64,000 nt of DNA from an uncultured delta proteobacterium (lineage in GTDB: Bacteria > Desulfobacterota > Syntrophia > Syntrophales > Smithellaceae): NCBI GenBank assembly GCA_963753975.1, contig CAVWEH010000001.1, forward strand, positions 96,001-160,000, given 5' to 3'. Shown piece after piece: positions 12,423 through 31,831 of this stretch (its first letter is position 1; each line of letters begins with the position of its first letter). A program made the translations under genes and the position numbers. Under the pieces are notes generated by a model, which did no database searches, was not told the origin of the DNA, and saw only the letters and a list, made by a program, of their open reading frames with translations.

Positions 12423-13886
12423 ATGATAGATATCAAATCGAAATCGTTATTACGTAAATTTTCCATTATATTTGTCGGAGTTGCTTTAATCCCCTTCATT
12501 ATTCTTTTTTTTCTTCATTCACTCTATGATGAAAGTCACAGATTTATTCAAATATTGGATGCTCATTTCAGTTTGATAATAGGTATTATCGGAATAATCT
12601 CCATACTCGGTTTTTTTGGCATGCGCATGATGGTCAAAAAAATTATTTTATTAACAGAGACTGTAAGAGAAGCGGTAATAGATAAAAAAACAATGTTGGA
12701 ATTGGCGGAAGACGAAGGCGAGATAGGCGAATTAGCCAAATCATTTTTTTATGCTTTGAAGAGCGTTGACCAAAGAGAGCAACAACCTAAAGAAACAAAA
12801 AAAATAATATATGATGTTCTGAAGAAGGCGAGTGAGGTTCTTGCCGTAGTAAATAATTATGATAATTTAATTAACCTGGTATTGGAAACAACCACTGTTG
12901 CCTTAGGCGCAAAACAGGGTGCGTTGTTTTCTGCCTTGGAAACAACCGCTGACGCATCAGGTGCACAGCAGGGTGCATTGTTCCCTGCCGAGGACAACCG
13001 CTATACATTAAAAGCATGGGTAGGCAATCATAATGTCACGCCGGAACATGTTATGGAAACTGCACAATCCTATCTTGATCAGGTGGCAAGCCATAAGAGG
13101 CCCTTTTTAATAACTGCAAAAGAAAAAAACAAGCAATCGGATAAATTACTTATCCCGCCTTTAGTGTTTTCACCTTTAATTTATAGTGAAAAATTATTGG
13201 GAGTGCTTTGTTTTTGTGGAAATGGTTATTGGAATAAATTTTCTAATGACCATATGGTCGTTGTGTTGAATTTGAGTCATCAACTTGCTGTTTCTCTGGA
13301 AAATGCAAAAATAAATAAAGATTCAGATCAAACTTACTTCGAAACGCTGGCAGCTCTGGCTCTGGCGACGGAGGCAAGAGATCCTTATTCCCGGGGGCAT
13401 TCCGGTCGTGTCGGCAAGACTGCGCAAAAAATCGGGGAATTAATGGGTTTGCCGGCGGAAGATATTAAAGCTCTGCGGGATGCTTCTATGTTACATGATA
13501 TCGGCAAGATAGCAATTATGCACGATATATTTATCAAGCAAGGTAAGGTCAGTGAAGAAGAGAAATATGTCATGAGAAATCATCCCGTCATTGGCGAGAG
13601 TATTGTATCGCACCTGCAGACATATAAGCATATTTTGGATCCTATCAGGCATCATCATGAACAACTCGACGGAAGTGGATATCCCGACGGCCTTAAAAAC
13701 GGGGAGATATCAACGATCACGAGTATTCTGACCATTGCCGATCTATTCGATATTTTTATGGAGAATCGCTCCTATAGATCAGGAATGAATCTTGAAGATG
13801 CGATGAAAGAACTCGATAATCTCGTTATAGCCGGAAAAATAGATAAAGATGTAGTGGATAGTCTTTATCATATCTATTATTCATAA
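12423..13886 (+). CDS. Membrane-anchored GAF/HD-GYP protein (putative c-di-GMP phosphodiesterase)
   Basis: Two N-terminal TM segments, HAMP-like EIGELA, GHSGRV, HDIGK, HHEQLDGSGYPDGL. Confidence 0.88.
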   Translation: MIDIKSKSLLRKFSIIFVGVALIPFIILFFLHSLYDESHRFIQILDAHFSLIIGIIGIISILGFFGMRMMVKKIILLTETVREAVIDKKTMLELAEDEGEIGELAKSFFYALKSVDQREQQPKETKKIIYDVLKKASEVLAVVNNYDNLINLVLETTTVALGAKQGALFSALETTADASGAQQGALFPAEDNRYTLKAWVGNHNVTPEHVMETAQSYLDQVASHKRPFLITAKEKNKQSDKLLIPPLVFSPLIYSEKLLGVLCFCGNGYWNKFSNDHMVVVLNLSHQLAVSLENAKINKDSDQTYFETLAALALATEARDPYSRGHSGRVGKTAQKIGELMGLPAEDIKALRDASMLHDIGKIAIMHDIFIKQGKVSEEEKYVMRNHPVIGESIVSHLQTYKHILDPIRHHHEQLDGSGYPDGLKNGEISTITSILTIADLFDIFMENRSYRSGMNLEDAMKELDNLVIAGKIDKDVVDSLYHIYYS

Positions 13887-14107
13887 GGAAAGCGGGGAAC
13901 AAATATCGGGGACTTTTCTTAATGCTTACAATCTTCCAACACTTTTAATTATCCTACACCGTTTATTTGCAGGCGATGCAGCAAGCACTTCTTCCTGCAA
14001 TCCATAAATCGTCAACCTCGACGAAAATGCAGGGCTTCAAACGATAATCATTAGTAATTACGGAAAGCAATCACGCGGGAAAAACATCACGGCCTCCTGA
14101 CCTTTCT

Positions 14108-15493: not shown

Positions 15494-15570
15494 GTGATTG
15501 CAAATTATGAGACTTGGTTAAAGGCAAGGGCATCTCGTAAATAAATTATTGAAATATAAAGAAATATGCC

Positions 15571-15599
15571 TTGACTTTGCATAAAGAGCAGAGTATGTT
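15571..15599 (+). promoter_or_regulatory. Putative sigma70 promoter of the cold-shock gene
   Basis: TTGACT-17 nt-TATGTT about 180 nt upstream of the ATG. Confidence 0.5.
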
Positions 15600-15778
15600 C
15601 CCTGCATATCTTGTACCTTGCTATGGTCTTAAGTCAGTGCGGTACAGTTAAAGTTGAGTTATGACAATTTGAAGTGCAAAGGCGGCCACCGTGCTCTTTA
15701 GAGTCTCGGTGGCTTTTTTATTTCTGTCATATTGGTAATTCGACTTTTGGTAAATTTTAAGAAAGGAGGATACTAATT

Positions 15779-15979
15779 ATGTCAGAAGGTAAAGTAAAAT
15801 GGTTTAACGAGAGTAAAGGTTTTGGATTTATCGAGAAGAGTGACGGTGGGGACATTTTCGTCCATTTCAGCGCCATTCAAGCCAGTGGATTCAAGACCTT
15901 AACCGAAGGCCAGGCTGTAAGTTTCGATATTGTTCAGGGCAATAAAGGTCCTGCAGCAGAAAACGTGAAACCCTGCTAA
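15779..15979 (+). CDS. Cold-shock protein (CspA family)
   Basis: [32 protein letters not shown]. Confidence 0.97.
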
Positions 15980-15997
15980 TTAAACCTGGGTAAAAGA

Positions 15998-16046
15998 AGA
16001 GGCGCTCCATCAACGATATTGTATTGTGGAGCGCCTCTCCATTTTC
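15998..16046 (+). terminator. Hairpin downstream of the cold-shock gene
   Basis: AGAGGCGCTCCA/TGGAGCGCCTCT 12-bp stem with a short T tract. Confidence 0.55.
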
Positions 16047-16094
16047 AGCATATTCTGTAACGTTTGAAAGAAAGACAAAAAGAGGAGTTTAAAA

Positions 16095-16274
16095 ATGGCA
16101 AAGTCCATGTACAACTTTGGCAAACAGGCCAAAGAAAAAGCAAGGCAGCAGAAACAAATGGATAAGACTGCAAAGCGCATGCTGGCGAAACAGCGGAAAG
16201 CTGATATAAAAACGCACACTCCGAACGCAGGCTCAGATATAGCTGAACCGCGAACCAGTGGAGGAGATCGTTAA
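16095..16274 (+). CDS. Small basic hypothetical protein (59 aa, absent from the ORF track)
   Basis: GAGGAG RBS; MAKSMYNFGKQAKEKARQQKQMDK... Confidence 0.7.
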   Translation: MAKSMYNFGKQAKEKARQQKQMDKTAKRMLAKQRKADIKTHTPNAGSDIAEPRTSGGDR

Positions 16275-16330
16275 AGACACAGCATAACTTTTGTTTGTTT
16301 TCAGGATTGTAAACCTGAAGGTGAGTAGAA

Positions 16331-16738
16331 ATGACTGAAGATATTTTAGACTACTGGACCAGACTTATAAAGACAATTTTCCCGGAGAACGCCTGGATAA
16401 CTTCTCGTTTTTTCAAAAATGATTGTTTAATAAATATCGATTGGAATGTAAAAAATGATCCGAAGAACCCAAACAAGCGTTCCAAAAGGATTGAGATAAT
16501 AATAAAAAGCGATGCACTGGAAAATTATCTCGACAAGAACAAGAAAGATCGCGAATTATCCGACATCGTGCTGAAAGAATTTATTCACGAACAGTATAAC
16601 CATTTTAGTTCCAATTATGATATTAGCACCAGCCAATATGTTCCGAAGGAAAAGTGGTTAATCTCCCGGGATGTACTTAATTGCAAGCCTTCATTTGACA
16701 CACCCCCTATAGATCAAGTCAAATCAATTTATCAATAA
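16331..16738 (+). CDS. Hypothetical protein
   Basis: 135-aa ORF, AAGGTGAG upstream, no recognised motif. Confidence 0.65.
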   Translation: MTEDILDYWTRLIKTIFPENAWITSRFFKNDCLINIDWNVKNDPKNPNKRSKRIEIIIKSDALENYLDKNKKDRELSDIVLKEFIHEQYNHFSSNYDISTSQYVPKEKWLISRDVLNCKPSFDTPPIDQVKSIYQ

Positions 16739-16814
16739 CAATGGTGATGATGAAGAGCGCGGACTTCTGCTCGAATTCATTGAAATCTGCCCTTAATAAA
16801 TTCATCCGATGTCG

Positions 16815-16843
16815 TTGACATCTCCCCAATTCAGGCATATATA
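16815..16843 (+). promoter_or_regulatory. Putative sigma70 promoter
   Basis: TTGACA-17 nt-TATATA upstream of the 16955 ORF. Confidence 0.45.
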
Positions 16844-16954
16844 AACATGAAAAGTATCAAATTCATTGTTTCGGGCTTGGATAATGTTTAGGCGGAGTGT
16901 TATCAAAGCTTTCCGACAAATACTCTTAACTCGTTCGCAGAAAGGAGTCTTACA

Positions 16955-17110
16955 ATGAACCTACCTAAGAATCTCGGCATACTCTTGTTGGGTATCTGGC
17001 TTATCATCTATGGGCTGATGCAACTGCTGAGTCTCAGTTTTTACGGACTCGGTGTACTCATGGCCATCTTCGCAATCGTTATAGGTATTTTGCTCATAAT
17101 GAAGCGATAG
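16955..17110 (+). CDS. Small two-TM membrane protein (51 aa, absent from the ORF track)
   Basis: AAGGAG RBS; MNLPKNLGILLLGIWLIIYGLMQLLSLSFYGLGVLMAIFAIVIGILLIMKR. Confidence 0.75.
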   Translation: MNLPKNLGILLLGIWLIIYGLMQLLSLSFYGLGVLMAIFAIVIGILLIMKR

Positions 17111-17286
17111 GCCGGAAGGATATCGGCGTCCTTTGAAATATAGGGGAATAGGACGGTCGTCCCGTTTATTTCTTCTGTGCAGAAGCTTAAAAACCACACG
17201 TTGCATGTTGCAACGGCAAAAGCCCAGTCCCAAGAAAAAGACAAAAAAGGTGAATTAAGTGTTATGTCCCCCGAATTCACGTTGAC

Positions 17287-18099
17287 CTAATAATTAGTAA
17301 TAACTAATTCATTTACTTTATGCCTGAAAGACTTACATGTGATCCATCTAGTTACCGGCAATATCGATATGTTCCAACCTTTATACAGATTATGTATTAG
17401 AGGGATATCCGCATTAGAAATCATAACTCGACAACCCAGTCGGCTCATTTGATTAGCTATTGCAGATACATTTATTTGATCTTCTTTGCCAAATCTTTCT
17501 TTAGTATAATGAGTAAAAAAGGAAGTTCCATTAAGGGGAGGGTATGGGGGGTCTAGATATACAAAATCTCCTTTCTTCACCTTTATTAATATCTTTTCAT
17601 AAGAGCATGCATTGAGCTTTGCCCTTTTAAGCAATGCGCTGACTGATCTCAGTGTTTCAAGAGATGGGAAAGTTGGTTTTTCTTTCTTCCCGAAAGGAAC
17701 ATTATAGAAGCCACTGCTATTTACACGGAATATGCCATTATACGATGTCTTATTGAGATATATAAAACGAGCTGCTTGTTTAATTGATTTCTGTGATTTA
17801 TTGTAATCTTCTCTGACTTTATAATACTCTACTGAATTAGTGTGCTCGATCAATCTTTTGAGGTAGAATGCCACTTTATCTGGATAGTCGCGTACCATTT
17901 GATAGCACTCTACAAGGTGACTATTGGAATCAGACAAAATAGCTTTACTTGGTGATAGAGCAAAAAAAATGGATCCCCCACCTAAAAACGGTTCCCAATA
18001 AGTATATTCCTTCAAGTCTTTGGGTAGATATGTAATAAGACGTTTGGCATGATGGACTTTTCCTCCAGCCCAGCTCAGAAAAGCTTGCAATTCTGTCAC
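17287..18099 (-). CDS. Dam-family (D12 class) N6-adenine DNA methyltransferase
   Basis: FLSWAGGK, YWEPFLGGGS, YLNKTSYNGIFRVN, FVYLDPPY. Confidence 0.95.
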   Translation of the reverse strand: MTELQAFLSWAGGKVHHAKRLITYLPKDLKEYTYWEPFLGGGSIFFALSPSKAILSDSNSHLVECYQMVRDYPDKVAFYLKRLIEHTNSVEYYKVREDYNKSQKSIKQAARFIYLNKTSYNGIFRVNSSGFYNVPFGKKEKPTFPSLETLRSVSALLKRAKLNACSYEKILIKVKKGDFVYLDPPYPPLNGTSFFTHYTKERFGKEDQINVSAIANQMSRLGCRVMISNADIPLIHNLYKGWNISILPVTRWITCKSFRHKVNELVITNY

Positions 18100-18140
18100 C
18101 TTAATAATTTAACATTTAATATTTTTTATATATTTTACGA

Positions 18141-20553
18141 TCATTCTTCATCCTGAATTCCAAGAGCTTTATTTCTCCTTTGGTAAAATTCGTATTTGAT
18201 GAACTTCATAAACTCATAATCCTGTTCATCGTATGCACGAGTAGGACTTGGATGAGCAGGTATTTTCCTTATTTCATTAAACGTCTTCATCCAATCCAGA
18301 TAGTATGTTTTACCCTTTTCACCAGATAACGGTATGTTAAATACATTTTCAAAGAGGGGCCAATTATTCTTTTGTCTGATAATGTGCATTAAATCTAATA
18401 TGTCAAGATAAGCCTCTTTGGGGAGTTTTTTGTCTGCAGTAGCAGCGAGTTGTCGTTTGTATGCTTCTTCCTTTGTTGGCACACTTTCAATCCCTTTTTC
18501 CCAATAAGCTTTTTCTCCAGACTTCTCTTCCGTAATTCCATAATGTTTTTTTAAGACATCAATCACATATACCAATATATCTTGAGATAACTTGATAACA
18601 TCTTTATGAGTTTGGCTGATGCGTTCATCAGATCTCTGTACAAGTCTCTGCTTAAATTCCTCCGATCCAAAATCATTGAAGTCTTTATTAATTATCTCGC
18701 ATAGGTTGTCGGTATATTCTTTGACACCACCTTCTCCAAATTTTCGTCCAAATTTTTCATAAATATCTGCATCTGATGCAGTCTTTATAAAACTCAATAC
18801 TGATTTAGCAATTTTCTCTATATGGTTAATCAATATTTCTTCGTTAGTTGTAGGGGGATCGATGACTTGTTTAAGCTCCAAGTATCTAATAATTTCTGTG
18901 AGCAACATAAGGTGGGCTCTGATTCCAGGATTTGTAGATATATAGCCACTTCGAGCTGCTTCCCAACGATTTGGATTCGAATCTCTAATTTTTAGGAAGT
19001 ACGAATTTAAAACGCTACGGGCGCGCATAATTGTTTTTTCATCTGTTTCAGCGCTTAAAGCGCCCGTTGCGAAATTTTTATGGATTCTGACGCCCTAAAA
19101 GACCAGATCTTGTTAATCCATTTACTATTTCAGGAATAGTCAAACTCTGGTTCTCCTTAGCAACAACACCCTGAATGGCAAAACGTTGGAAGAGTGGACT
19201 TGTGGGGTCACTGTTCAGAGATTTTACTAAGCGAGATGATAATGCCGCTAATCGTTCTTTTGGATCGGCTGAACCCCATTTGAGGTCAGATTGTAATGAT
19301 ACTATAACGCTTCTCTGTACCGTTTTTTGCTTCTGATTAATTGTAATAAACAAATCTGCTTCTGTTTTTATGCCCATCTCTTCAAATGCTATTATAGCTA
19401 TACTCTGGTTCCAGAATTTATCTTCCTCAAGGTGAGAATAACCATAAAGCCTATGCTGACCATCTATAATCCATGCTGACTTATATTTGTTTGGGAGATA
19501 AAGCCAACCAAACTTTATTTTAGGGTCAGTGTTCTCTTTATTTGGTAGTAAATCAAATCGACATTTTTCTGTAAAATTGAGGAGCAAGTTTGTTGGAAAA
19601 TAACCACCTTTTTCAATAAATTTACCAATATCCTTTATTCGATTTGGTGATATCATTCTTTGGTATGCTGGCCGGCCATCGGGGTGATTTAATGCTTGAT
19701 GGTTAATGAATGCTATTTTTAGTAGAACTCGGGGTGTAGTAATAAAGCTATAAAATTTATGCCCTCCCAAACTACCTCGTTTTGCCGCCACTTTTTCATT
19801 TGAGAGACCCGGAATTACTTGACCTTGAAGAAATTCTGAAAGGAATTGGAAACGTCCAGCGGGTCCCATATGTCGAATAAACGAATCAAAGTATTGGAAC
19901 TCATTTTCAGTCACGATCCTGACATTTATTGCAGAAGCCCTTTCAATATCGGGATCAGACCAGATAATATTATTTGTAACATAGAGCCATATAATTTTAG
20001 GCTTGAAATCATGTCCATAATGTTTACAAATTGAATCAGCCAAGTATTTTTGAAGTGATTCAGTTTCGTGCAAATCTTTTTGTAAAGATCTCCTGCCTCG
20101 CACCTCCTTTGATTTGCATTCGGCTACAATAACTGTTTCATCATCCTTTGCAAATACGTCTATTTTTTTTTCACCAAGAGTCCCATCACGTCTTTTAAAA
20201 CGTATTGTAAAGTTATTTCCACCAAGATGGGGATATCCCATTCTATAAAATAAACACCATACTTGATCTTCAAGAAGAGTATTATGTAATTTTAATCGTT
20301 TAAGACGAACTTTTTTGTTACCGCCTTTATGTACTTCCCACCCATCATCTTCGTATTGTTGTTGATCTGCAGGATGAATGATTTTATATACATAACTATC
20401 ACGGCGCTTGGTATAAGCTGACTTTAACTGAGCTTTATCTTTGATTAAAGGACATAAATTATCTTGAATAGGTCTTCTATCTGGATAATTTGAGAATGAT
20501 TGCGCAGCGAGAACCTTGGCTTTGTCCTTTGGTTTGCTACTTGCTGATGACAT
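18141..20553 (-). CDS. DGQHR (DndB-like) domain protein with N-terminal PD-(D/E)XK-like and C-terminal HEPN-like regions; about 803 aa after correcting one +1 frameshift near 19089
   Basis: IDVFAKD...AECKS; YQRM...FPTN...IIDGQHRLYG; FNEIRKIPAHP; removing one base joins ...GLLGR to RIHKNFATGALSAETDEKTIMRAR. Confidence 0.85.
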
Positions 20554-21024
20554 AAGAACCTCCTTTTCTCAAATATCTTAGGATTAGGAAGGAGCATTTA
20601 AAAAAATTTTTTATATTGTCATCTTCATATACGCTTAGTCTACTGACTTTCTTGAATATGGTTTCTTTTGCGCCATCATTTATGTTCTTCATTGTAGGTA
20701 AATCCAACGTTCGGGATATATCAAACGCGTGCTTTTGCCAGATTATCAAAGAACGTGTTCCAGATCAGGTCTTGAAATAGAAGCTTTCCTGCTTGCAGTA
20801 GGCATTAAACTATCCAATTAATTGCGGATAATATTACAACTTCCAAAGAACAATGCAACTGTTATTAACAGTATCGTCACAGATGAAGGTGGCGCGTGGC
20901 AAAACGCTGGGCAGTGCCAGTTATTTCTTATTGCCCATTCATTTTAGTGATTTCCGTTTTTGTCTCCTCATTCAGAAATTTACATAATTGGTGTCTAGCG
21001 ATGTTCGGTGGCATTAATTTCCGG

Positions 21025-21372
21025 TTATTCGACAATTTTGAGTTTCAGAGTCTTCGCGGCATCTTCCAATGATCCAAGATTGACGACATCTTTGTATCCC
21101 AGTTTCTCCAGGGCTTCTTTGGCAATTTGCGCTCGATGTCCGGTTCTACAGTATACATAGATCCTCTGCGACTTATCTTGGACAACGTCGCCAATTTTTT
21201 CACCGATCTCTTTGTAGGGGATCCGGATGGCGCCATCAAGATGACCGAAATTCCACTCCCAGGCAGTTCTGACGTCAATAATGACAGGCTTGGCCGCGTC
21301 ACCGCCAAACGTAGTCGTTGCAAAACTGGCAATCATTATGATTATCAATGCCAGGCAAAGTATTTTTTTCAT
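21025..21372 (-). CDS. Exported rhodanese-like domain protein
   Basis: Signal peptide, IIDVRT..E...GHLDGA, VYCRTGHRA. Confidence 0.9.
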   Translation of the reverse strand: MKKILCLALIIIMIASFATTTFGGDAAKPVIIDVRTAWEWNFGHLDGAIRIPYKEIGEKIGDVVQDKSQRIYVYCRTGHRAQIAKEALEKLGYKDVVNLGSLEDAAKTLKLKIVE

Positions 21373-21431
21373 GTCTCCCCCTTTTTTATGGCCGATAATT
21401 TTCTATTTAAAATATTGGATGAGTCAAACGG

Positions 21432-21475
21432 TATCTCTCTGACCCTCCCCCGGAAGGAGAAGAGTCAGAGAGATA
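21432..21475. other. Intergenic hairpin between the AsmA and rhodanese genes
   Basis: TATCTCTCTGAC/GTCAGAGAGATA 12-bp stem. Confidence 0.55.
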
Positions 21476-21481
21476 ATGAGT

Positions 21482-22867
21482 TTATTTCTTTTTGAATAAC
21501 ATATCCTGGAGGAGTTGTTTCCCCGCTTGTGTCGCGATACTGCCGGCGGCTTTTGTGACTACAGTGCTCAAGGACGCTAGCTGGGGTTGCACCAGCTTGG
21601 TATTGGTCTTTTTAGTGGTGCCGCCAACCTTTAGTTTCAGGTCGATCACGCCGTCTTTATTGAGCAGGGGCTCCATCGCCGCCTCAGCCAGTTTATTCGA
21701 ATCGGCGTATTTCTTTGCCTGCGGGCTCTTAATGGCCGCTTCTATTTTTTGGGCCAGCGATGCTTTGACGGCATCATTTATTTCCTTTTTCATCACCATA
21801 TCCATGTTCATGTCGAGCGCCTTCGAATCCGTATTGACCGCGCCGTCGAAGAGAAGCTTCGCCTCTTTGAGGTCGAGTCTGCCGTTCGTAAGCTCGGTCT
21901 TATTGTCTTTGTAGTGCACGTCGACACCGGTTTCTTTGGAGTCTTTCCACTGCTGTTTATCCTTCAAAAAGGAGATATATTGCCCCAGATAATCGCCCAG
22001 GAGAGGAATGGACGCCACGGAATTAAAAATCTGCAATCCGGTGATCTCGCCGTCGGGGACAGCTACATGTAAAATTACCTCGGGATCCAAATACCGTGTT
22101 TTCACATCAAAAGGAATTACCTTTCCCGTTGCATCCAATGTCAGGTCGAAATTCTGGACACTCCCTGTTTTCATGGGGCCGACAGTTTTCAAACCGAGGC
22201 CTATTTTTAATTTTACCTCGTCTTTCTTTTCCAAGTCTTTCGGGTCTATGTTGATATCGTAGGCCAGAGTGGTCAGCTTATAAACCTGAAATTTTTGATC
22301 GTACTCGCCGTCGTAGTAGTTGATGGTGCCGTTCTTGATGCCGATTTCTCCCACGGTAATGGCGATAGGTATATCATCGGCCGTAATGGGTTTTGCCGGT
22401 TCCTTGACTTCCGCTTTATCGACCGGCTGTTTCTTGGGCTTGATCAAATCGTCGCAGTTCAAAACGCCCTGCTTGCTTTTGGTCAGGTTGATGATGGGGC
22501 TGTACAAAACAAGTTCCTTAAGATCGAATTGTTTTCTTAGCAGGGGCAAAAGCCTGATTTTGAAGCGCAAAGATTCCATTCCGGTAAAGAGATCGCCTGC
22601 CGGAACGGGTTTGCCCTGAAGAGTTGCGAGTTCCTGAGGAGTCTTAAAATTGGAAATGGCGACTTTCTTTATCTCAATTCCCGAAACGATGGAGAAAATG
22701 CTGACATCGATTTTTTCGATATAGACCTGCCGGTGCAGTGCCTGGGAAATCTGTAACGCGATAAATTCCTTGTTCACTTTGATCATGATGATAATGCCGG
22801 CAATAACGACAAGAATTAAAATGGCCGCAACCAAAGAACCGATAGTGATAAGTATTTTTTTAAACAT
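21482..22867 (-). CDS. AsmA-family protein
   Basis: N-terminal TM anchor, I...ISQALHRQV, LLPLLRKQ..LKELVLYSPIINL. Confidence 0.75.
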   Translation of the reverse strand: MFKKILITIGSLVAAILILVVIAGIIIMIKVNKEFIALQISQALHRQVYIEKIDVSIFSIVSGIEIKKVAISNFKTPQELATLQGKPVPAGDLFTGMESLRFKIRLLPLLRKQFDLKELVLYSPIINLTKSKQGVLNCDDLIKPKKQPVDKAEVKEPAKPITADDIPIAITVGEIGIKNGTINYYDGEYDQKFQVYKLTTLAYDINIDPKDLEKKDEVKLKIGLGLKTVGPMKTGSVQNFDLTLDATGKVIPFDVKTRYLDPEVILHVAVPDGEITGLQIFNSVASIPLLGDYLGQYISFLKDKQQWKDSKETGVDVHYKDNKTELTNGRLDLKEAKLLFDGAVNTDSKALDMNMDMVMKKEINDAVKASLAQKIEAAIKSPQAKKYADSNKLAEAAMEPLLNKDGVIDLKLKVGGTTKKTNTKLVQPQLASLSTVVTKAAGSIATQAGKQLLQDMLFKKK

Positions 22868-23119
22868 AACTCTTACCGCCTTTCCTTAAAGTTCGAATAA
22901 ATACCAATTAAAAATTAAAATTTAATAAACGGCAGGTCATTTCCATCGCCTGCTATGCATATAGGGGAAAAAATACCGGATGTCAATCCCGCGACTTGGA
23001 ATTTCCCGGCTCCTGTAACCTAAAGGTCATCTGCGACCGGAGGTGTCTCCCTTGGTATGCGCAAATTTTGAAGAGCAAACTTTCAGCGGATAAGCATCAT
23101 ATTTGACTGACAATTTTTC

Positions 23120-23148
23120 TTGACACGCAATCGCACTTCTCCTATGCT
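23120..23148 (+). promoter_or_regulatory. Putative sigma70 promoter of the HEAT-repeat pair
   Basis: TTGACA-17 nt-TATGCT. Confidence 0.55.
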
Positions 23149-23248
23149 TTATTAAAATAAAGCACAGCCGTATTTAATAAAATATTTGAAATTAAGATAA
23201 TATTGGTTGAAATTAATACAATTTTCATCGGCAGAGGTAAAGGCAGAG

Positions 23249-25480
23249 ATGGATATAAGGCAAAAATCTTTAGATGCACTTATCCTTATGAACTCAGCCA
23301 TAAAGAATGTGCGCCTCTATCCCCCTACCAGTGCTGCAATTATTAATACTATCGAAAAGCTTCATCTGGCTTTTTTGAACATGTTTGCCCTGGAAGCTCC
23401 GATAATCTTTGCGGAATCAGAGAAAAATCTTTTGATCTGTGGAAAACCATTAGACCAGAAAGACTTGGAAAAGCCACAGGTTACTACATTGCTGAACATC
23501 CTTCTCAATCTCGGTATTGAAAGCATCACTTTCGATATAGGGTTGGAAAAAGCGGAACTTGGTGTTTTTTTGGAGCTACTTTCAAAAAGGCCGGAGAGTG
23601 TAAAAAGCGAAGGCGATTTGCTCAAAATCATGGACGAAAATAATGTGCAGCATATTTACCTGAATCAAAAGGTTTATGTAGCCATGGACAAGAAACAGAA
23701 GATATTGTCCAGCCTTGATATTACCGATGATCAAATCACCCAGTTTTTTATGCAGATTCATCCGGAATTGGCAGGCGATGCTGACAAACTTCAAGAAATG
23801 ATGAGGGATCCGGAATGGTTATCGCAAACTTTCCAGACAGAGTTATCTCAGATGATGAGGCAAAAAGGAGCTTTATCCGCTGTTGTGCTTTCCGAAAATC
23901 TGGAGAAGATGATAGCTTTAATGGATAAAGTTGCCGGTTCGCTTGATGAGCAAGATCGCGACAAGGTATCCCGGCGCATCGGGAAGTTGATTACTTTCTT
24001 GGATTCCGACATAGTACAACAGCTAAATGTTCAGAATATTGAGCACCTTTTCGGCGGTATGCTGCTGCAATATCTTGCCGGTAAAATTACCGGGGATAAA
24101 CCTGTTAAAGCGCATATATCCAATGAAGGGGTATCCGTTAAAACTCAAATCCCGGAGAGTGGCGCCGCTCTGGAGACGACTTCCTTGCAAAATCAAATCC
24201 TTAATCTTAAAGAAAAACTTCGTTCTTCTCCGCAGGATGATCAGAAAGCCTTTTTGGATGCACCTTTAATGTTGGATTTACCCAATCTTTTCGAACAACT
24301 CGATGCTCAAAAAGAACACGAGACCATGGCGATAATTATCAACCGCCTGGTGGGCAATCTGTTCAGCAAAAATGCCGATGTGCGCGCTCAGGCGTCTACG
24401 GCGCTTGCCGATATATTTGCCGGCCTTTCTCACGAGCGGAAGAACAAACTGATCGAAAGCCTATCAACTCAATTGATTAACTGGATCAAAATAGAACCTT
24501 TGGCAACACGAGCCTACACGAAAATATGTAATAATTTGAAAGACCTTGTCCATGATTTTATTCGTGAAGGGCGTTTTGCCGAAGCAATCCCGATTTTGGA
24601 TGTTTTTAGTAATATTAGCGCCGGAATTTTGGAAAAGAATGATGAGGCGCAAGAAATATCTTCGGATATTATTCGGGCTCTGGCATCAGAAGAGCACCTT
24701 GCCATTCTTTTAAAAGCATTTAACGCCAAGAATTCAAGCAAACAGGTTGAATCAGGCAGGGTATTGGTTAGGCTTGACGACGATGCAATGAACCGTTTGC
24801 TGGATATTCTCCGGAACAAGGCCGATAGCGATGACCGCGTGCGCATTATGAAACTATTTATCGGAATTGGAAAGAGGGCTGTGCCGGTCATCAGGGATAG
24901 GATCAGTAAAACAGCACCCTGGTATTATTTGCGTAATCTTGCGTACATACTCGGCCATATCGGTGACGAATCGAGCGCCGGCGCGCTTCAGCCCCTTCTG
25001 CTGCATGAAAATAAACGGCTGCGGATGGAAGCCTTAAAAGGTATTTATCGGACAGGCGGGAAAGAAAGAGGGGCAATCCTGTTATCTGTTTTACCCCTTG
25101 CGGATGATCAATTCAAACTTAGCATTATTGAAACCCTGGGTAACGCGAAATGTGTTGACGCAGTACCCGAACTTCTATCTCTGCTAAAAAAACGGCGATT
25201 AGTAACCCCATCGTTGCGTGCTGATCAGGAAGAGAGAATCTGTGCCGCCCTTGGCTCCATTGGATCTCCAGAGGCATTGCCCGCTCTTTCCCAAATAGCT
25301 AAAGCGGTATCTTTCTTCCACATCCGCTCTTATGCCGCAAAGGTTAAAATTGCGGCCGGTATAGCTGTGGCATCCATTAGAAAAAAGCAGGAAGAAACGG
25401 TGCAAGCAATGAAAGCTGCAGAAACAGTACAGGAAGCGAAAGCGGCAGAAGTAGTAGCTGAGGTCGGAGTCTCCAATTGA
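23249..25480 (+). CDS. HEAT-repeat protein, paralogue 1
   Basis: KNVRLYPP N-terminus, WYYLRNLAYILG and further HEAT-like repeats; start set to match paralogue 2 (MDI). Confidence 0.85.
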   Translation: MDIRQKSLDALILMNSAIKNVRLYPPTSAAIINTIEKLHLAFLNMFALEAPIIFAESEKNLLICGKPLDQKDLEKPQVTTLLNILLNLGIESITFDIGLEKAELGVFLELLSKRPESVKSEGDLLKIMDENNVQHIYLNQKVYVAMDKKQKILSSLDITDDQITQFFMQIHPELAGDADKLQEMMRDPEWLSQTFQTELSQMMRQKGALSAVVLSENLEKMIALMDKVAGSLDEQDRDKVSRRIGKLITFLDSDIVQQLNVQNIEHLFGGMLLQYLAGKITGDKPVKAHISNEGVSVKTQIPESGAALETTSLQNQILNLKEKLRSSPQDDQKAFLDAPLMLDLPNLFEQLDAQKEHETMAIIINRLVGNLFSKNADVRAQASTALADIFAGLSHERKNKLIESLSTQLINWIKIEPLATRAYTKICNNLKDLVHDFIREGRFAEAIPILDVFSNISAGILEKNDEAQEISSDIIRALASEEHLAILLKAFNAKNSSKQVESGRVLVRLDDDAMNRLLDILRNKADSDDRVRIMKLFIGIGKRAVPVIRDRISKTAPWYYLRNLAYILGHIGDESSAGALQPLLLHENKRLRMEALKGIYRTGGKERGAILLSVLPLADDQFKLSIIETLGNAKCVDAVPELLSLLKKRRLVTPSLRADQEERICAALGSIGSPEALPALSQIAKAVSFFHIRSYAAKVKIAAGIAVASIRKKQEETVQAMKAAETVQEAKAAEVVAEVGVSN

Positions 25481-25520: not shown

Positions 25521-27722
25521 ATGGATATAAATCAAAAATCTTTAGATGCACTTATCATTTTGAACACAGCCATAAAGAATGTGCGCCTCTATCCCCCTAC
25601 CAGTGCTGCAATTATTAATACTATCGAAAGGCTTCATCTGGCTTTTCTGGACATGTTTGCCCTGGAAGCTCCGATAATCTTCGCGGAATCAGAGAAAAAT
25701 CTTTTGATCTGTGGAAAACCATTAGACCAGAAAGACCAGGAAAGATTCCAGGTCACGGCATTACTGAACATCCTTCTCAGTTTTGGTATGAAGAGCATCA
25801 CTTTCGATATAGGGCTGGAAAAAGCGGAACTTAGTGCTTTTTTGGAGCTACTTTCAAGAAAGCCGGAAAGTGTAAAAAGCGAAGGCGGTTTGCTCAAAAT
25901 CATGGACGAAAATAATGTGCGGCATATTTACCTGGATCAAAAGGTTTATGTAACCATAGATAAAGATCAAAAAATCATTTCCAGCCTTGATATTACCGAT
26001 GATCAAATCACCCAGTTTTTTATGCAGACTCATCCGGAATTGGCAGGCGATGCTAAAAAACTTCAAGAAATGATGAAGGATCCGGAATGGTTATCGCAAA
26101 CTTTCCAAGCAGGGTTATCTCAGATGATGAGGCAAAAGGAAGCTTTATCCAATGTTGAGCTTTCCGAAAATCTGGAGAAGATGATAGCTTTAATGGATAA
26201 AGTTGCCGGTTCGCTTGACGAGAAAGATCGCGACAAGGTATCCCAGCACATCGGGGAGTCCATTGTTAGCGCAGACCATGATATGACTAAGCAGCTGACA
26301 ACTCAGAATATTGAGCACCTTTTCGGCGGCATGCTGCTGCAATATCTTGTCAGTGAACTCGGTGAGGTTAAATCTGTTGCGGCGCGTACATCAAACGCGG
26401 GTGTATCAGATGGTAAGCAAGGTGATGGTAGTGGAAGTGGAAGTGGCTTCACCGGAGGTGAGGGCTCTGCTGGTGCAGTTCGTCCGGGGAAAGATGATTA
26501 TCAAAGCCAGATGAATGCTCTTAAACAAATGCTCAAAGCGCAACTGAAAAGTGATGAAAAAGGTCTTTTGAATACATCTCTGATGTCAGTCCTGCCCAAA
26601 ATTATCGAACAGCTCATTGTTCAAAAAGAAGATGAGACTATGGAAACGATCACCAGCCGCCTGCTCAAAAATCTGTTGAGTGAAGACGTCGAAGTGCGCA
26701 ATCAGGCATCTAAAGGCCTGGCCGATATCTTTGAAACACTTCCTCTGCAGCGGAAAAACGAACTGATCGAAAGAATATCAGCAGCATTAATGAATTGGAT
26801 CAAATTGGAAACATTGACATCACCTGCCTATGTGAAAATCTGCAACAGCCTGCAGCAATTCGTGCAGGATCTTATCCGCAAGGGACGTTTTGGTGAAACA
26901 ATCCCGATTCTGGATGTTTTCAGCGATATTCATGCCGGTGTTTTGGAAAAGAATGTTACGATACGGGAAATATCTTCAGAGGTTATTAGAAATCTGGCAA
27001 CAGAAGAACATCAAGCTCTACTCTTTAAAGAATATCATAGCAATAAGCAAAACAAACAGGCCGAGGCGGGTAAGATATTGGTTAGATTTGGGGATTTTAT
27101 ATTGGAGCGCTTGCTCGATAATGTTCAAAAAGTTGCCGACAGTGACGAGCGTGTACGTATTATGCGTCTGATAATCGAAATGGGACAGAAAGCCGTACCA
27201 TTTGTCCGGAAACAGATCAGTAAAGATGCATCATGGTATTATTTACGCAATCTTGCGTATATACTCGGCCATATCGGTAATGAAGAGAGTGCCAATGCGC
27301 TGAAACCACTGCTGCTCCATGAAAACGAACGGTTGCGTATGGAAGCCTTGAAAAGTGTTTACCGGACAGGAGGAAAAGATAGAGGACAACTGCTATTGTC
27401 CGTTTTGCCCCAGGTAGATGATCAATTCAAGCGTAACATAATTGAAACGCTTGGTAACGCGAAATGTGTCGATGCTGTACCCGATCTTCTGAAGATGCTC
27501 AAAACCAGGTCAGCAATAGCCCCATCATTCCGGGCTGATCTGGAAGAGAAAATCTGTATTGCCCTTGGCGCCATCGGATCCCCTGAAGCGATACCGGCAC
27601 TTTCGGAAATCGCTGAATCAAAGTCTTTTTTACGAATCGGTAATTATCCCCAAAAAGTCAAAATTGCCGCCGGCATGGCGTTAATATCTATTAGAAAAAA
27701 ACAGCCGGAAATAGCAGAGTAG
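25521..27722 (+). CDS. HEAT-repeat protein, paralogue 2
   Basis: Same architecture as paralogue 1, with a Gly/Ser-rich linker. Confidence 0.85.
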   Translation: MDINQKSLDALIILNTAIKNVRLYPPTSAAIINTIERLHLAFLDMFALEAPIIFAESEKNLLICGKPLDQKDQERFQVTALLNILLSFGMKSITFDIGLEKAELSAFLELLSRKPESVKSEGGLLKIMDENNVRHIYLDQKVYVTIDKDQKIISSLDITDDQITQFFMQTHPELAGDAKKLQEMMKDPEWLSQTFQAGLSQMMRQKEALSNVELSENLEKMIALMDKVAGSLDEKDRDKVSQHIGESIVSADHDMTKQLTTQNIEHLFGGMLLQYLVSELGEVKSVAARTSNAGVSDGKQGDGSGSGSGFTGGEGSAGAVRPGKDDYQSQMNALKQMLKAQLKSDEKGLLNTSLMSVLPKIIEQLIVQKEDETMETITSRLLKNLLSEDVEVRNQASKGLADIFETLPLQRKNELIERISAALMNWIKLETLTSPAYVKICNSLQQFVQDLIRKGRFGETIPILDVFSDIHAGVLEKNVTIREISSEVIRNLATEEHQALLFKEYHSNKQNKQAEAGKILVRFGDFILERLLDNVQKVADSDERVRIMRLIIEMGQKAVPFVRKQISKDASWYYLRNLAYILGHIGNEESANALKPLLLHENERLRMEALKSVYRTGGKDRGQLLLSVLPQVDDQFKRNIIETLGNAKCVDAVPDLLKMLKTRSAIAPSFRADLEEKICIALGAIGSPEAIPALSEIAESKSFLRIGNYPQKVKIAAGMALISIRKKQPEIAE

Positions 27723-30528: not shown

Positions 30529-31831
<1,303 letters not shown>

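Follow-up and report, generated by a model that had tools for sequence, protein, structure and literature searches.

A predicted restriction-modification-like gene pair joins PD-(D/E)XK, DGQHR and HEPN-like domains to a Dam-family methylase

We analyzed a 64,000-nucleotide stretch of contig CAVWEH010000001.1 (assembly GCA_963753975.1, positions 96,001 to 160,000; hereafter the window), which derives from an uncultured bacterium of the Smithellaceae, and within it a cassette of two neighboring genes at positions 17287–20553. An earlier reading of the letters alone (the original prediction) had singled out this cassette as a candidate defense system. It consists of a large gene, whose reading frame is broken by a single extra base in this assembly, and a gene for a Dam-family DNA methylase. 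Comparison with relatives and structural modeling suggest that it is most likely a member of a widespread class of restriction-modification-like pairs, in which the putative restriction subunit joins a PD-(D/E)XK domain, a DndB/ParB-type nucleotide-binding domain and an HEPN-like domain.

Results

Layout of the locus

The cassette comprises three open reading frames (ORFs), all on the minus strand and in the same orientation: ORF1, then ORF2 and then, after an intergenic gap of 41 bp, the methylase gene (Table 1). The content of guanine plus cytosine (GC) is 0.359 in the cassette and 0.44 in the window. These coordinates and values agree with the initial description of two co-oriented genes 41 bp apart in an AT-richer segment, and every motif then quoted for the large gene and the methylase could be located in the window sequence.

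Table 1. Coordinates of the cassette and its predicted features (positions in the window)
Feature	Position	Strand	Description
ORF1	19078-20553	minus	491 aa; N-terminal two thirds of the large protein: small N-terminal domain, PD-(D/E)XK nuclease, DGQHR/ParB-like domain
PD-(D/E)XK nuclease domain (predicted)	19834-20286	minus	residues ~90-240; E95 and D132...D137...E145-C-K147 motif; LEDQVW at 20257-20274; IDVFAKDDETVIVAECK at 20113-20163
DGQHR (DndB/DpdB-type ParB/Srx) domain (predicted)	19159-19791	minus	residues ~255-465; YQRM at 19654-19665; DGQHR pentapeptide at 19450-19464
Single extra base	19085	minus	GATC to GAATC on the coding strand; shifts the frame
C-terminal third of the large protein, in the shifted frame	18141-19094	minus	frame open from 19094; helical DpdB-like continuation and HEPN-like domain
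ORF2	18141-19028	minus	295 aa counted from the ATG at 19028; C-terminal third of the large protein
HEPN-like four-helix domain (predicted)	18153-18632	minus	ORF2 residues ~133-292; WPLFENVF at 18339-18362; NEIRKIPAH with N251, R254 and H259 (Rx4H) at 18252-18278
Methylase gene	17287-18099	minus	270 aa; predicted Dam-family (D12 class) N6-adenine DNA methyltransferase; DPPY at 17542-17553; FLGGGS S-adenosylmethionine motif (FxGxG)
Terminator-like hairpin	17199-17215	minus	~70 nt past the methylase stop; from a consensus scan only
Low-GC island	17127-20917		GC 0.364, window 0.44; holds only the two-gene cassette

ORF1 and ORF2 correspond to the two parts of one large protein. The nearest homologue, P0002, is a single protein of 803 amino acids (aa); ORF1 is 93% identical to its residues 1–489, and the part encoded in the ORF2 frame is 90% identical to its residues 486–803. 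ORF1 ends in ...GLLGRQNP*, at a point where P0002 reads GRQIHKNFATG (fuller stretch ...GLLGRQIHKNFATG...). The original prediction had recovered an ORF of about 803 aa by removing one base near 19089. The frameshift stands, as does the length given by P0002, while the position proved to be 19085. Homologues of the large protein form 2452 clusters at E ≤ 1e-3 (7991 candidates scored), and public records call it a "DGQHR domain-containing protein" or, misleadingly, "DndB". Chance does not account for the features seen in these sequences: homologues number in the thousands, and in an alignment of 59 of them the motifs show little or no variation.

Domains of the large protein

The N-terminal part of the large protein is firmly predicted to be a PD-(D/E)XK nuclease. 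In an alignment of 59 full-length homologues, which share 39–74% identity with P0002, each residue of the D...ExK nuclease signature (E95, D132, D137, E145, C146 and K147) is either invariant or conserved to at least 90%, and all of them are present in the window. We modeled full-length P0002 with AlphaFold2 on the homologue alignment (mean predicted local distance difference test score [pLDDT] 86.5, predicted template modeling score 0.73) and compared models with 48,161 structure representatives using VIA-align. Residues 90–225 aligned with AF1548 at Z 11.3 (root-mean-square deviation 2.3, 117 residues aligned), VC1899 (Z 10.3), Card1 (9.9), Can2 (9.8), NucS (8.1), BstEII (7.7) and FokI (7.1). 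Foldseek likewise matched residues ~30–240 to Cdn1, VC1899, Can2 and Card1 in the PDB, at E values of 5e-4 to 2e-2, and the nuclease part of the PADLOC profile CARF_PDDEXK matches 20/59 members (best 2.8e-7). Predicted fold and conserved residues together bear out the nuclease domain that had first been proposed from its motif.

The central part is assigned, also firmly, to the DGQHR family, as the original prediction had it. ORF1 scores above the curated cut-off of TIGR03187 (2.3e-39; 135.8 bits, cut-off 58.85) and above that of PF14072, the Pfam DndB family (3.3e-15; 56.4 bits, cut-off 29.1), and it matches the PADLOC profile DpdB at 2.1e-16. On P0002 the match to the DpdB profile continues to about residue 581. 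Across the 59 full-length members the PADLOC profiles DpdB and DndB match 59/59 and 31/59, respectively. Three motifs of the domain are named in PMC4619093, a QR pair, DGQHR and FxxxN, and the residues that correspond to them here (Q298-R299, D364-G-Q-H-R368 and F402...N406) are invariant in the 59 homologues. In the P0002 model, residues ~260–410 resemble the ParB-like protein PadC (Z 7.7), KorB (6.5) and sulfiredoxin (5.9).

Assignment of the C-terminal end to an HEPN-like fold is moderately supported. Its putative active-site motif is well conserved: in the 59 homologues N759 and R762 do not vary, H767 is conserved to at least 90% (Rx4H) and A766 to at least that level; in 54 C-terminal sequences R254 never varies and H259 reaches at least 90% conservation (ORF2 numbering). 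A profile of this end matches 142 representative clusters at E ≤ 1e-30. VIA-align matched residues 639–801 of the P0002 model to PbAbiF (Z 8.2), the HEPN domain of Swt1 (6.9) and a HEPN toxin (6.0). A separate model of window ORF2 (pLDDT 90.7) gave 1wwp (7.2), PbAbiF (7.0), AF_0298 (6.5), Csm6 (6.5) and Swt1 (6.5), in a set of top rows (Z 5–7.2) that are mostly HEPN and further include SO_3166, YutE, HI0074, sacsin and AbiA; all of these values, from Z 5 to 8.2, lie below the line at which the tool advises caution for helical bundles. Among Pfam families tested on the 54 C-terminal sequences, HEPN_Swt1 (8/54, best 5.6e-4) and Abi_2 (6/54, best 0.013) rank at the top, and over the 59 full-length members the PADLOC profiles PDC-M34B and AbiD match 9/59 and 6/59. 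Searching PDB sequences with a profile of the 59 members returned nothing under E 0.7. Of the HEPN domain with an RxxxxH motif that had been proposed here, the motif is upheld, and together with the fold and family matches it lends the domain itself moderate support.

The C-terminal module also occurs by itself. Stand-alone homologues of 276–300 aa (P0126, P0129, P0138, P0178, P0214 and P0257) correspond to the helical/HEPN part, and of four that were scanned, P0178, P0214 and P0257, but not P0129, match the PADLOC candidate PDC-M34B in the part that resembles HEPN. The system may thus also exist in split forms, in which a DGQHR protein works with a separate HEPN-like partner.

Pairing with adenine methylases

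Relatives of the large gene are consistently paired with a methylase. We examined the best 80 of at least 531 confirmed places, taken from one genome per species, and left out 8/80 because the contig ends less than 900 bp past the gene. In 72/72 loci with at least 900 bp of flank, a frame for an N6-adenine methylase adjoins the large gene. Recurrent linkage to a methylase had been set beforehand as a point on which the original prediction could fail, and it was found in every locus. The partner lies downstream in most loci and belongs to one of several classes: 62 are short and Dam-like (found by tblastn with the window methylase), 4 are long D12 methylases and 4 are of the MT-A70 class, and in two further loci (L013 and L034) a D12 methylase lies upstream. 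The methylases of L038 and L057 were verified by hand. When the first possible start is taken, 22/67 methylase ORFs begin 4 bases ahead of the stop of the large gene, an overlap that suggests translational coupling of the two.

The methylases appear to be exchangeable, and where one gene of the pair has decayed it is the large one. In a FastTree phylogeny of 68 large proteins, which mixes phyla, L044 (MT-A70 partner) is sister to L046 (Dam-like partner) with support 100, and a group made up of L002, L003 (both long D12) and L004 (Dam-like) also has support 100. The large gene is broken in 4/72 loci (L024, L026, L051 and L052), while the methylase frame is open in 72/72. A partner that is never missing, methylases that can be exchanged and decay on one side only are together as expected of a restriction gene and the methylase that protects against it. 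We also considered whether the large protein is much better conserved than its partner, which could be ruled out (median pairwise identity 42.7% for the large protein and 49.2% for the methylase, 57 loci).

The window methylase

The downstream gene, described earlier as a DPPY Dam-class methylase, is confirmed as such by its matches to profiles and to solved chains: PF02086 (5.5e-56), TIGR00571 (2e-76; 257.2 bits, cut-off 114.85) and PADLOC MTase_II (5.8e-86), with DpnM (1.9e-56) and Escherichia coli Dam (2.4e-43) as the closest solved chains. It is the sole D12 methylase of the source genome, which is 95% complete and contains no other DGQHR gene than the one studied here. With 66% identity to the methylase of L066, 54% to that of L059 and 31–41% to those of the remaining loci, it falls by sequence into an outlying, DpnM-like lineage.

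Its nearest relatives make GATC the likely recognition site. The site is not assured, since the protein scores below the equivalog cut-off of E. coli Dam (183, cut-off 441), and since, of six positions taken to be DNA contacts of Dam, four (Y119, N120, R124 and P134) are kept but two differ (K9 to S and Y138 to K). The observed-to-expected ratio of GATC in the genome is 0.79, which is unremarkable among palindromes.

A low-GC islet

The cassette lies in what appears from its sequence to be a 3.8-kb horizontally acquired islet that carries just this pair. This view rests on the low GC content, the occurrence of matches to congeners in the flanks but not in the island, and a patchy distribution. 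Flanking segments (13000–14029, 15540–17126 and 21000–24000) match same-genus genomes, whereas inside the island no match longer than 96 nt to 14 same-genus genomes is present among the matches listed (50 weaker ones exist besides). The large protein was found in 0/14 same-genus and 1/24 same-family genomes searched. The window contains no tRNA gene, and no convincing direct repeats flank the island. Searches of the 95%-complete source genome found no match to DndC and only a sub-cut-off match to the P-loop of DndD (dpdA was not searched for), in line with the earlier statement that the window has no dnd genes. The locus should not be regarded as a phosphorothioation gene.

The frame break at 19085

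Several lines of evidence bear on whether the extra base is real. Two sediment metagenome runs from two studies (shares 0.09 and 0.05) hold relatives at ~90–93% DNA identity rather than the source genome itself, and in each run a contig that spans the break is without one base at 19085. A second gene of the window is also split, namely that for a Cys/Met-metabolism enzyme dependent on pyridoxal phosphate (PF01053; 30532–31813, minus strand), which lies in two overlapping frames: Pfam profile positions 1–131 fall on 31283–31813 and positions 131–381 on 30532–31386. Its extra base, near 31380 and beside a GATC, is absent from 5/5 aligned same-genus genomes. More broadly, 208 kb of the source genome could be aligned with a congener, G013, at 86% identity. 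The alignment has 12 sites where the frame of the source genome is interrupted and that of G013 stays open across 200 nt or more to either side, and 9/12 of these are single-base insertions; the reverse case, with G013 interrupted and the source genome open, occurs at 63 sites. Frame-breaking indels of the kind found at 19085 thus occur in the source genome about once per 17 kb, and apparent pseudogenes in both genomes call for caution, given the many single-base insertions that break frames.

We favor an assembly error over a real mutation by about 2:1. This estimate is crude: an error rate of 1/17 kb over 2.4 kb gives 0.13, and the share of genuinely broken large genes among the loci gives 4/72 = 0.056. 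If the frameshift were real, the restriction gene would be dead and an orphan Dam-type methylase would have been kept, maybe in an epigenetic or anti-restriction role. We regard this as the less probable case. The extra base does stand in the assembly while close relatives in both runs are without it, the site is not a long homopolymer, and the four other loci with a broken large gene and an open methylase frame show that such decay happens; restriction-modification pairs usually end by losing their toxic member. On the other side, both halves are still ~90% identical to P0002 (~90–91%) with all motifs intact, the catalytic ones included, which would suit an assembly error as well as a mutation that arose very recently, and both the frequency of similar indels against the congener and the like splitting of the Cys/Met enzyme gene in the same window speak for error. 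A different possibility is that the two ORFs are a natural two-subunit form, a nuclease-DGQHR protein with a separate helical/HEPN protein, that is active despite the split. The stand-alone proteins of 276–300 aa are in keeping with such a form, in particular P0178 and P0214, which start at a "GPL" linker a few residues from the break, and ORF2 has an ATG where P0002 has a valine. We nevertheless think it very improbable, because the nearest relatives (P0002 and the contigs of the two runs that are without the extra base) are all fused; in addition, ORF2 would be short of 19 residues, among them the first part of a helix that is modeled with confidence, and by eye no Shine-Dalgarno-like sequence precedes its ATG. 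The apparent frameshift should not be taken for a pseudogene without the reads.

The extra base falls inside a would-be GATC (19082–19087). The 3267-bp cassette holds 16 GATC sites, and the chance of such a placement is ~1.5% for a random position. Both split genes have their break within a GATC or right next to one, for which reason we tested the idea of a methylation-linked basecalling error at this motif and rejected it, with no clear excess in three genome-wide tests. One-base deletions that create a GATC and join long frames numbered 15/8473 (1.77 per 1000), compared with 966/514397 (1.88 per 1000). In 259 frame-junction regions GATC was observed 45 times and expected 36.1 times, which places it top of 16 palindromes, a weak signal. 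The 12 sites interrupted relative to G013 lie 5–309 nt from a GATC.

Discussion

A proposed restriction-modification-like function

We propose, with a probability of roughly 0.7, that the pair is a horizontally acquired two-gene restriction-modification-like cassette with the large protein as its restriction subunit. The predicted domains and the methylase linkage in 72/72 loci support this reading, which the original prediction had also put forward. The Dam-family methylase would mark host DNA at adenines, and the PD-(D/E)XK domain of the ~803-aa protein would cut incoming DNA that is unmethylated. The DGQHR domain may serve as a switch that binds nucleoside triphosphates (NTPs) and couples sensing of DNA or its modification to the nuclease, as in GmrSD and SspE. 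We suggest a switch because the ParB/Srx fold binds NTPs and because DndB-like proteins, DpdB and GmrSD provide precedents: a DndB-like protein with this fold was found to bind ATP and GTP (bioRxiv 10.1101/2025.10.10.680097), and DpdB is described as an ATPase (PMC12839542). The HEPN-like end with its Rx4H motif could add an RNase arm as a second prong of the abortive-infection type, in line with the proposal that HEPN domains tied or fused to restriction components are back-up suicide RNases (PMC3710099).

Several observations weigh against this reading. At the HEPN-like end, besides the low Z scores, Foldseek found no match to the ORF2 model at E ≤ 0.001 (best Csm6, at E 0.96), and window ORF2 itself matches no Pfam family, with nothing in the Pfam, PADLOC or TIGR-type profile scans. 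The cassette stands among housekeeping genes, outside any defense island. A phage collection yielded only fragments of the DGQHR domain and no full-length relative of the large protein, and the literature searched contained no experimental study of this family or architecture. Finally, distant plasmid relatives (~29–31% identity over 88% of P0002) have no adjoining methylase, so methylase pairing is not universal in the wider family.

Two other functions can be set beside restriction. The pair could be an abortive-infection or addiction module in which the HEPN RNase, as main effector, would kill the cell or arrest it, the methylase-nuclease part serving only to sense loss of methylation or foreign DNA. 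Invariance of R762 and at least 90% conservation of H767 would fit, as would the back-up suicide RNase proposal for HEPN domains tied to restriction-modification systems (PMC3710099) and the description of PD-lambda-5 as a system of restriction-modification plus abortive infection (discussed below). Yet the catalytic residues of the PD-(D/E)XK domain are conserved as well as those of the HEPN domain, and the N-terminal nuclease part is on the whole more conserved than the HEPN part (median pairwise identity 44.7% and 36.2%, 57 loci), so that we consider HEPN as main effector unlikely; the abortive-infection and restriction readings are compatible rather than exclusive. Still less probable, in our judgment, is a role for the large protein as a DndB-like regulator or accessory NTPase of the methylase, with the pair as an epigenetic module. 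Precedents are not lacking: DndB has been reported to repress the dnd operon in a manner modulated by ATP (PMC4507180) and DpdB as an ATPase aiding a DNA-modifying enzyme (PMC10853773, PMC12839542), and the central part matches the DpdB profile in 59/59 members. A regulator, however, would have no need of two conserved nuclease-type active sites, and the protein scores far below the equivalog cut-offs of DndB (TIGR03233; 21.1 bits, cut-off 328) and DpdB (NF041060; 56.8 bits, cut-off 300). Decay of the large gene while the methylase stays is moreover what would be expected of a toxic partner, and the interchange of three unrelated methylase families likewise speaks against a regulator.

A more specific version of the restriction reading can be offered only tentatively, namely that one polypeptide merges restriction with abortive infection. 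The DndB/ParB NTP switch would load onto DNA, read the adenine mark set by the partner and license the PD-(D/E)XK DNase on unmarked DNA, and the HEPN RNase would fire if restriction is overwhelmed or blocked. Such a generic reader might serve three unrelated families of adenine methylase and, distantly, a modification module based on radical SAM (S-adenosylmethionine) chemistry. If true, it would amount to a portable "modification reader-effector" of an uncharacterized kind.

The family is large and extends across many phyla, with at least 531 places in contigs from one genome per species. If the large protein is a restriction enzyme, its build is unusual, in that a ParB-type nucleotide switch governs the nuclease, which is further linked to an RNase-type domain. 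It would then bear on the roles of ParB-fold NTPases outside chromosome segregation, on how the functions of restriction-modification and abortive infection combine, and on how a single effector is able to work with methylases that replace one another. A nuclease sensitive to methylation and gated by nucleotides might in addition find use as a reagent.

Comparison with known systems

The pair is a variant of a known theme. No named system was matched among the PADLOC profiles beyond the domain-level matches to DpdB and DndB, which is in keeping with the original prediction, where the pairing was not recognized as a named system. The theme itself is that of PD-lambda-5, a validated two-gene anti-phage system of E. 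coli listed as "ParB/HEPN, methyltransferase" (Vassallo 2022, PMC9519451), which gives protection from almost every phage tested and which its authors interpret as a compacted system of restriction-modification plus abortive infection (PMC9519451). With PD-lambda-5 validated and ParB-HEPN fusions listed in 2013, the pairing is not wholly new. Both systems pair a protein of the ParB superfamily that includes an HEPN domain (here HEPN-like) with a DNA methyltransferase, and the PADLOC profile PD-Lambda-5_B does match the window methylase (6.9e-12, 43 bits), far more weakly than the generic MTase_II (5.8e-86, 286 bits). For the large protein, by contrast, the profile PD-Lambda-5_A matches 0/59 members at E ≤ 1 and neither window ORF1 nor ORF2 at E ≤ 0.1. 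PD-lambda-5A has a canonical ParBc domain at its N terminus (HHsearch, residues 6–89) and a faint HEPN match (probability 8), no other match to a ParB or HEPN family being seen among the table entries examined in PMC9519451, and the two genes together span 2461 bp. The large protein described here has instead a centrally placed ParB domain of the DGQHR/DndB type, preceded by a PD-(D/E)XK nuclease. At the level of sequence we detect no relation between the pair and PD-lambda-5, and the likeness appears to be one of theme.

Other systems share one part of the architecture each. DpnII-type restriction-modification (M.DpnIIA/DpnM) is likewise a two-gene operon with a D12 methylase, and DpnM is, as noted, the best solved match to the window methylase. 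The predicted PD-(D/E)XK fold of the methylase partner has fold matches to BstEII, FokI, SdaI and PfoI (Z 6.8–7.7). Classical Type IIP enzymes are far smaller than the large protein (~785 aa), which differs from Type II in its added ParB-type NTP-binding and HEPN-like domains; the PADLOC profile REase_II matches 1/59 members, at E 0.024. DndB and DpdB have a central domain homologous to that of the large protein, and DndB itself has been described as ParB-like plus HEPN (PMC3632139). The large protein departs from both in missing their equivalog cut-offs and in having an added N-terminal nuclease and a methylase partner, in a genome where no dndC was found.

GmrSD, SspE and BrxU have the design predicted for the large protein, a ParB/Srx-type NTPase joined to a nuclease that senses modification of DNA. 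GmrSD-type enzymes join a ParB domain to an HNH nuclease (PMC12839542, PMC4619093), and the DGQQR and DGQHR motifs are related (PMC4619093). These proteins (DUF262 plus DUF1524) are modification-dependent or phosphorothioate-sensing, have no methylase in the operon and carry an HNH rather than a PD-(D/E)XK nuclease; Pfam found no DUF262 or HNH match in five full-length members at E ≤ 1 or in the window ORFs at E ≤ 0.1. The nuclease domains of Card1, Can2 and Cdn1, and of VC1899 and AF1548, are the best structural matches to residues ~30–240 of P0002 (Z 8.6–11.3), and Pfam Card1_endonuc weakly matches one homologue (P0107, 8e-5). Unlike Card1 and Can2, the large protein has no CARF sensor: CARF_PDDEXK aligns only at positions 273–358 of 364, and the structural alignments to Card1 and Can2 begin at about residue 150 of those chains.

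Related architectures have been noted before. Makarova et al. (2013) mention fusions of DGQHR/COG1479 to PD-(D/E)xK and HEPN domains, and a 2013 census of HEPN domains lists a Swt1-like HEPN-ParB fusion, "Saro_3948" of Novosphingobium aromaticivorans, as "mostly active", in a table that names neither an N-terminal nuclease nor a Dam methylase partner (PMC3710099). Plasmid pNL1 of this species encodes 769-aa DGQHR proteins that are 31% identical to P0002 over 88% of its length, and one of them may be Saro_3948. The pNL1 gene adjoins radical SAM and ATPase genes, not a methylase. Distant full-length relatives lie at L081 (4863–11361), L082 (4884–11588) and L093 (4363–10861), on pNL1 and an Agrobacterium plasmid, where the neighbors are a small DGQHR protein of 335–342 aa, a radical SAM protein and a GHKL/HSP90-like ATPase. 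At these plasmid loci an effector of this kind may be combined with a DNA-modification module of another type that is as yet undescribed. In two related loci (L003, 4150–4977, minus strand; L059, 9880–10731), a further and shorter match of the DGQHR type lies within a few kb of the methylase-containing cassette.

Genomic surroundings

The genes around the cassette encode ATP synthase, GreA, a MoaA-like protein, a PAS kinase, an HD protein, a rhodanese, an AsmA-like protein and HEAT-repeat proteins, along with thiamine genes, and an ORF nearby appears by eye to be cold-shock-like. Stretches of 45–75 nt at 23006–23050, 20917–20987 and 13979–14052 recur, at 81–100% identity, across this genome and same-genus genomes; the three window copies are unlike one another, pointing to several small repeat families. 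The HEAT-repeat proteins at 23207–25477 and 25521–27719 (733–757 aa) resemble tandem paralogues, with 92% DNA identity over part of their length.

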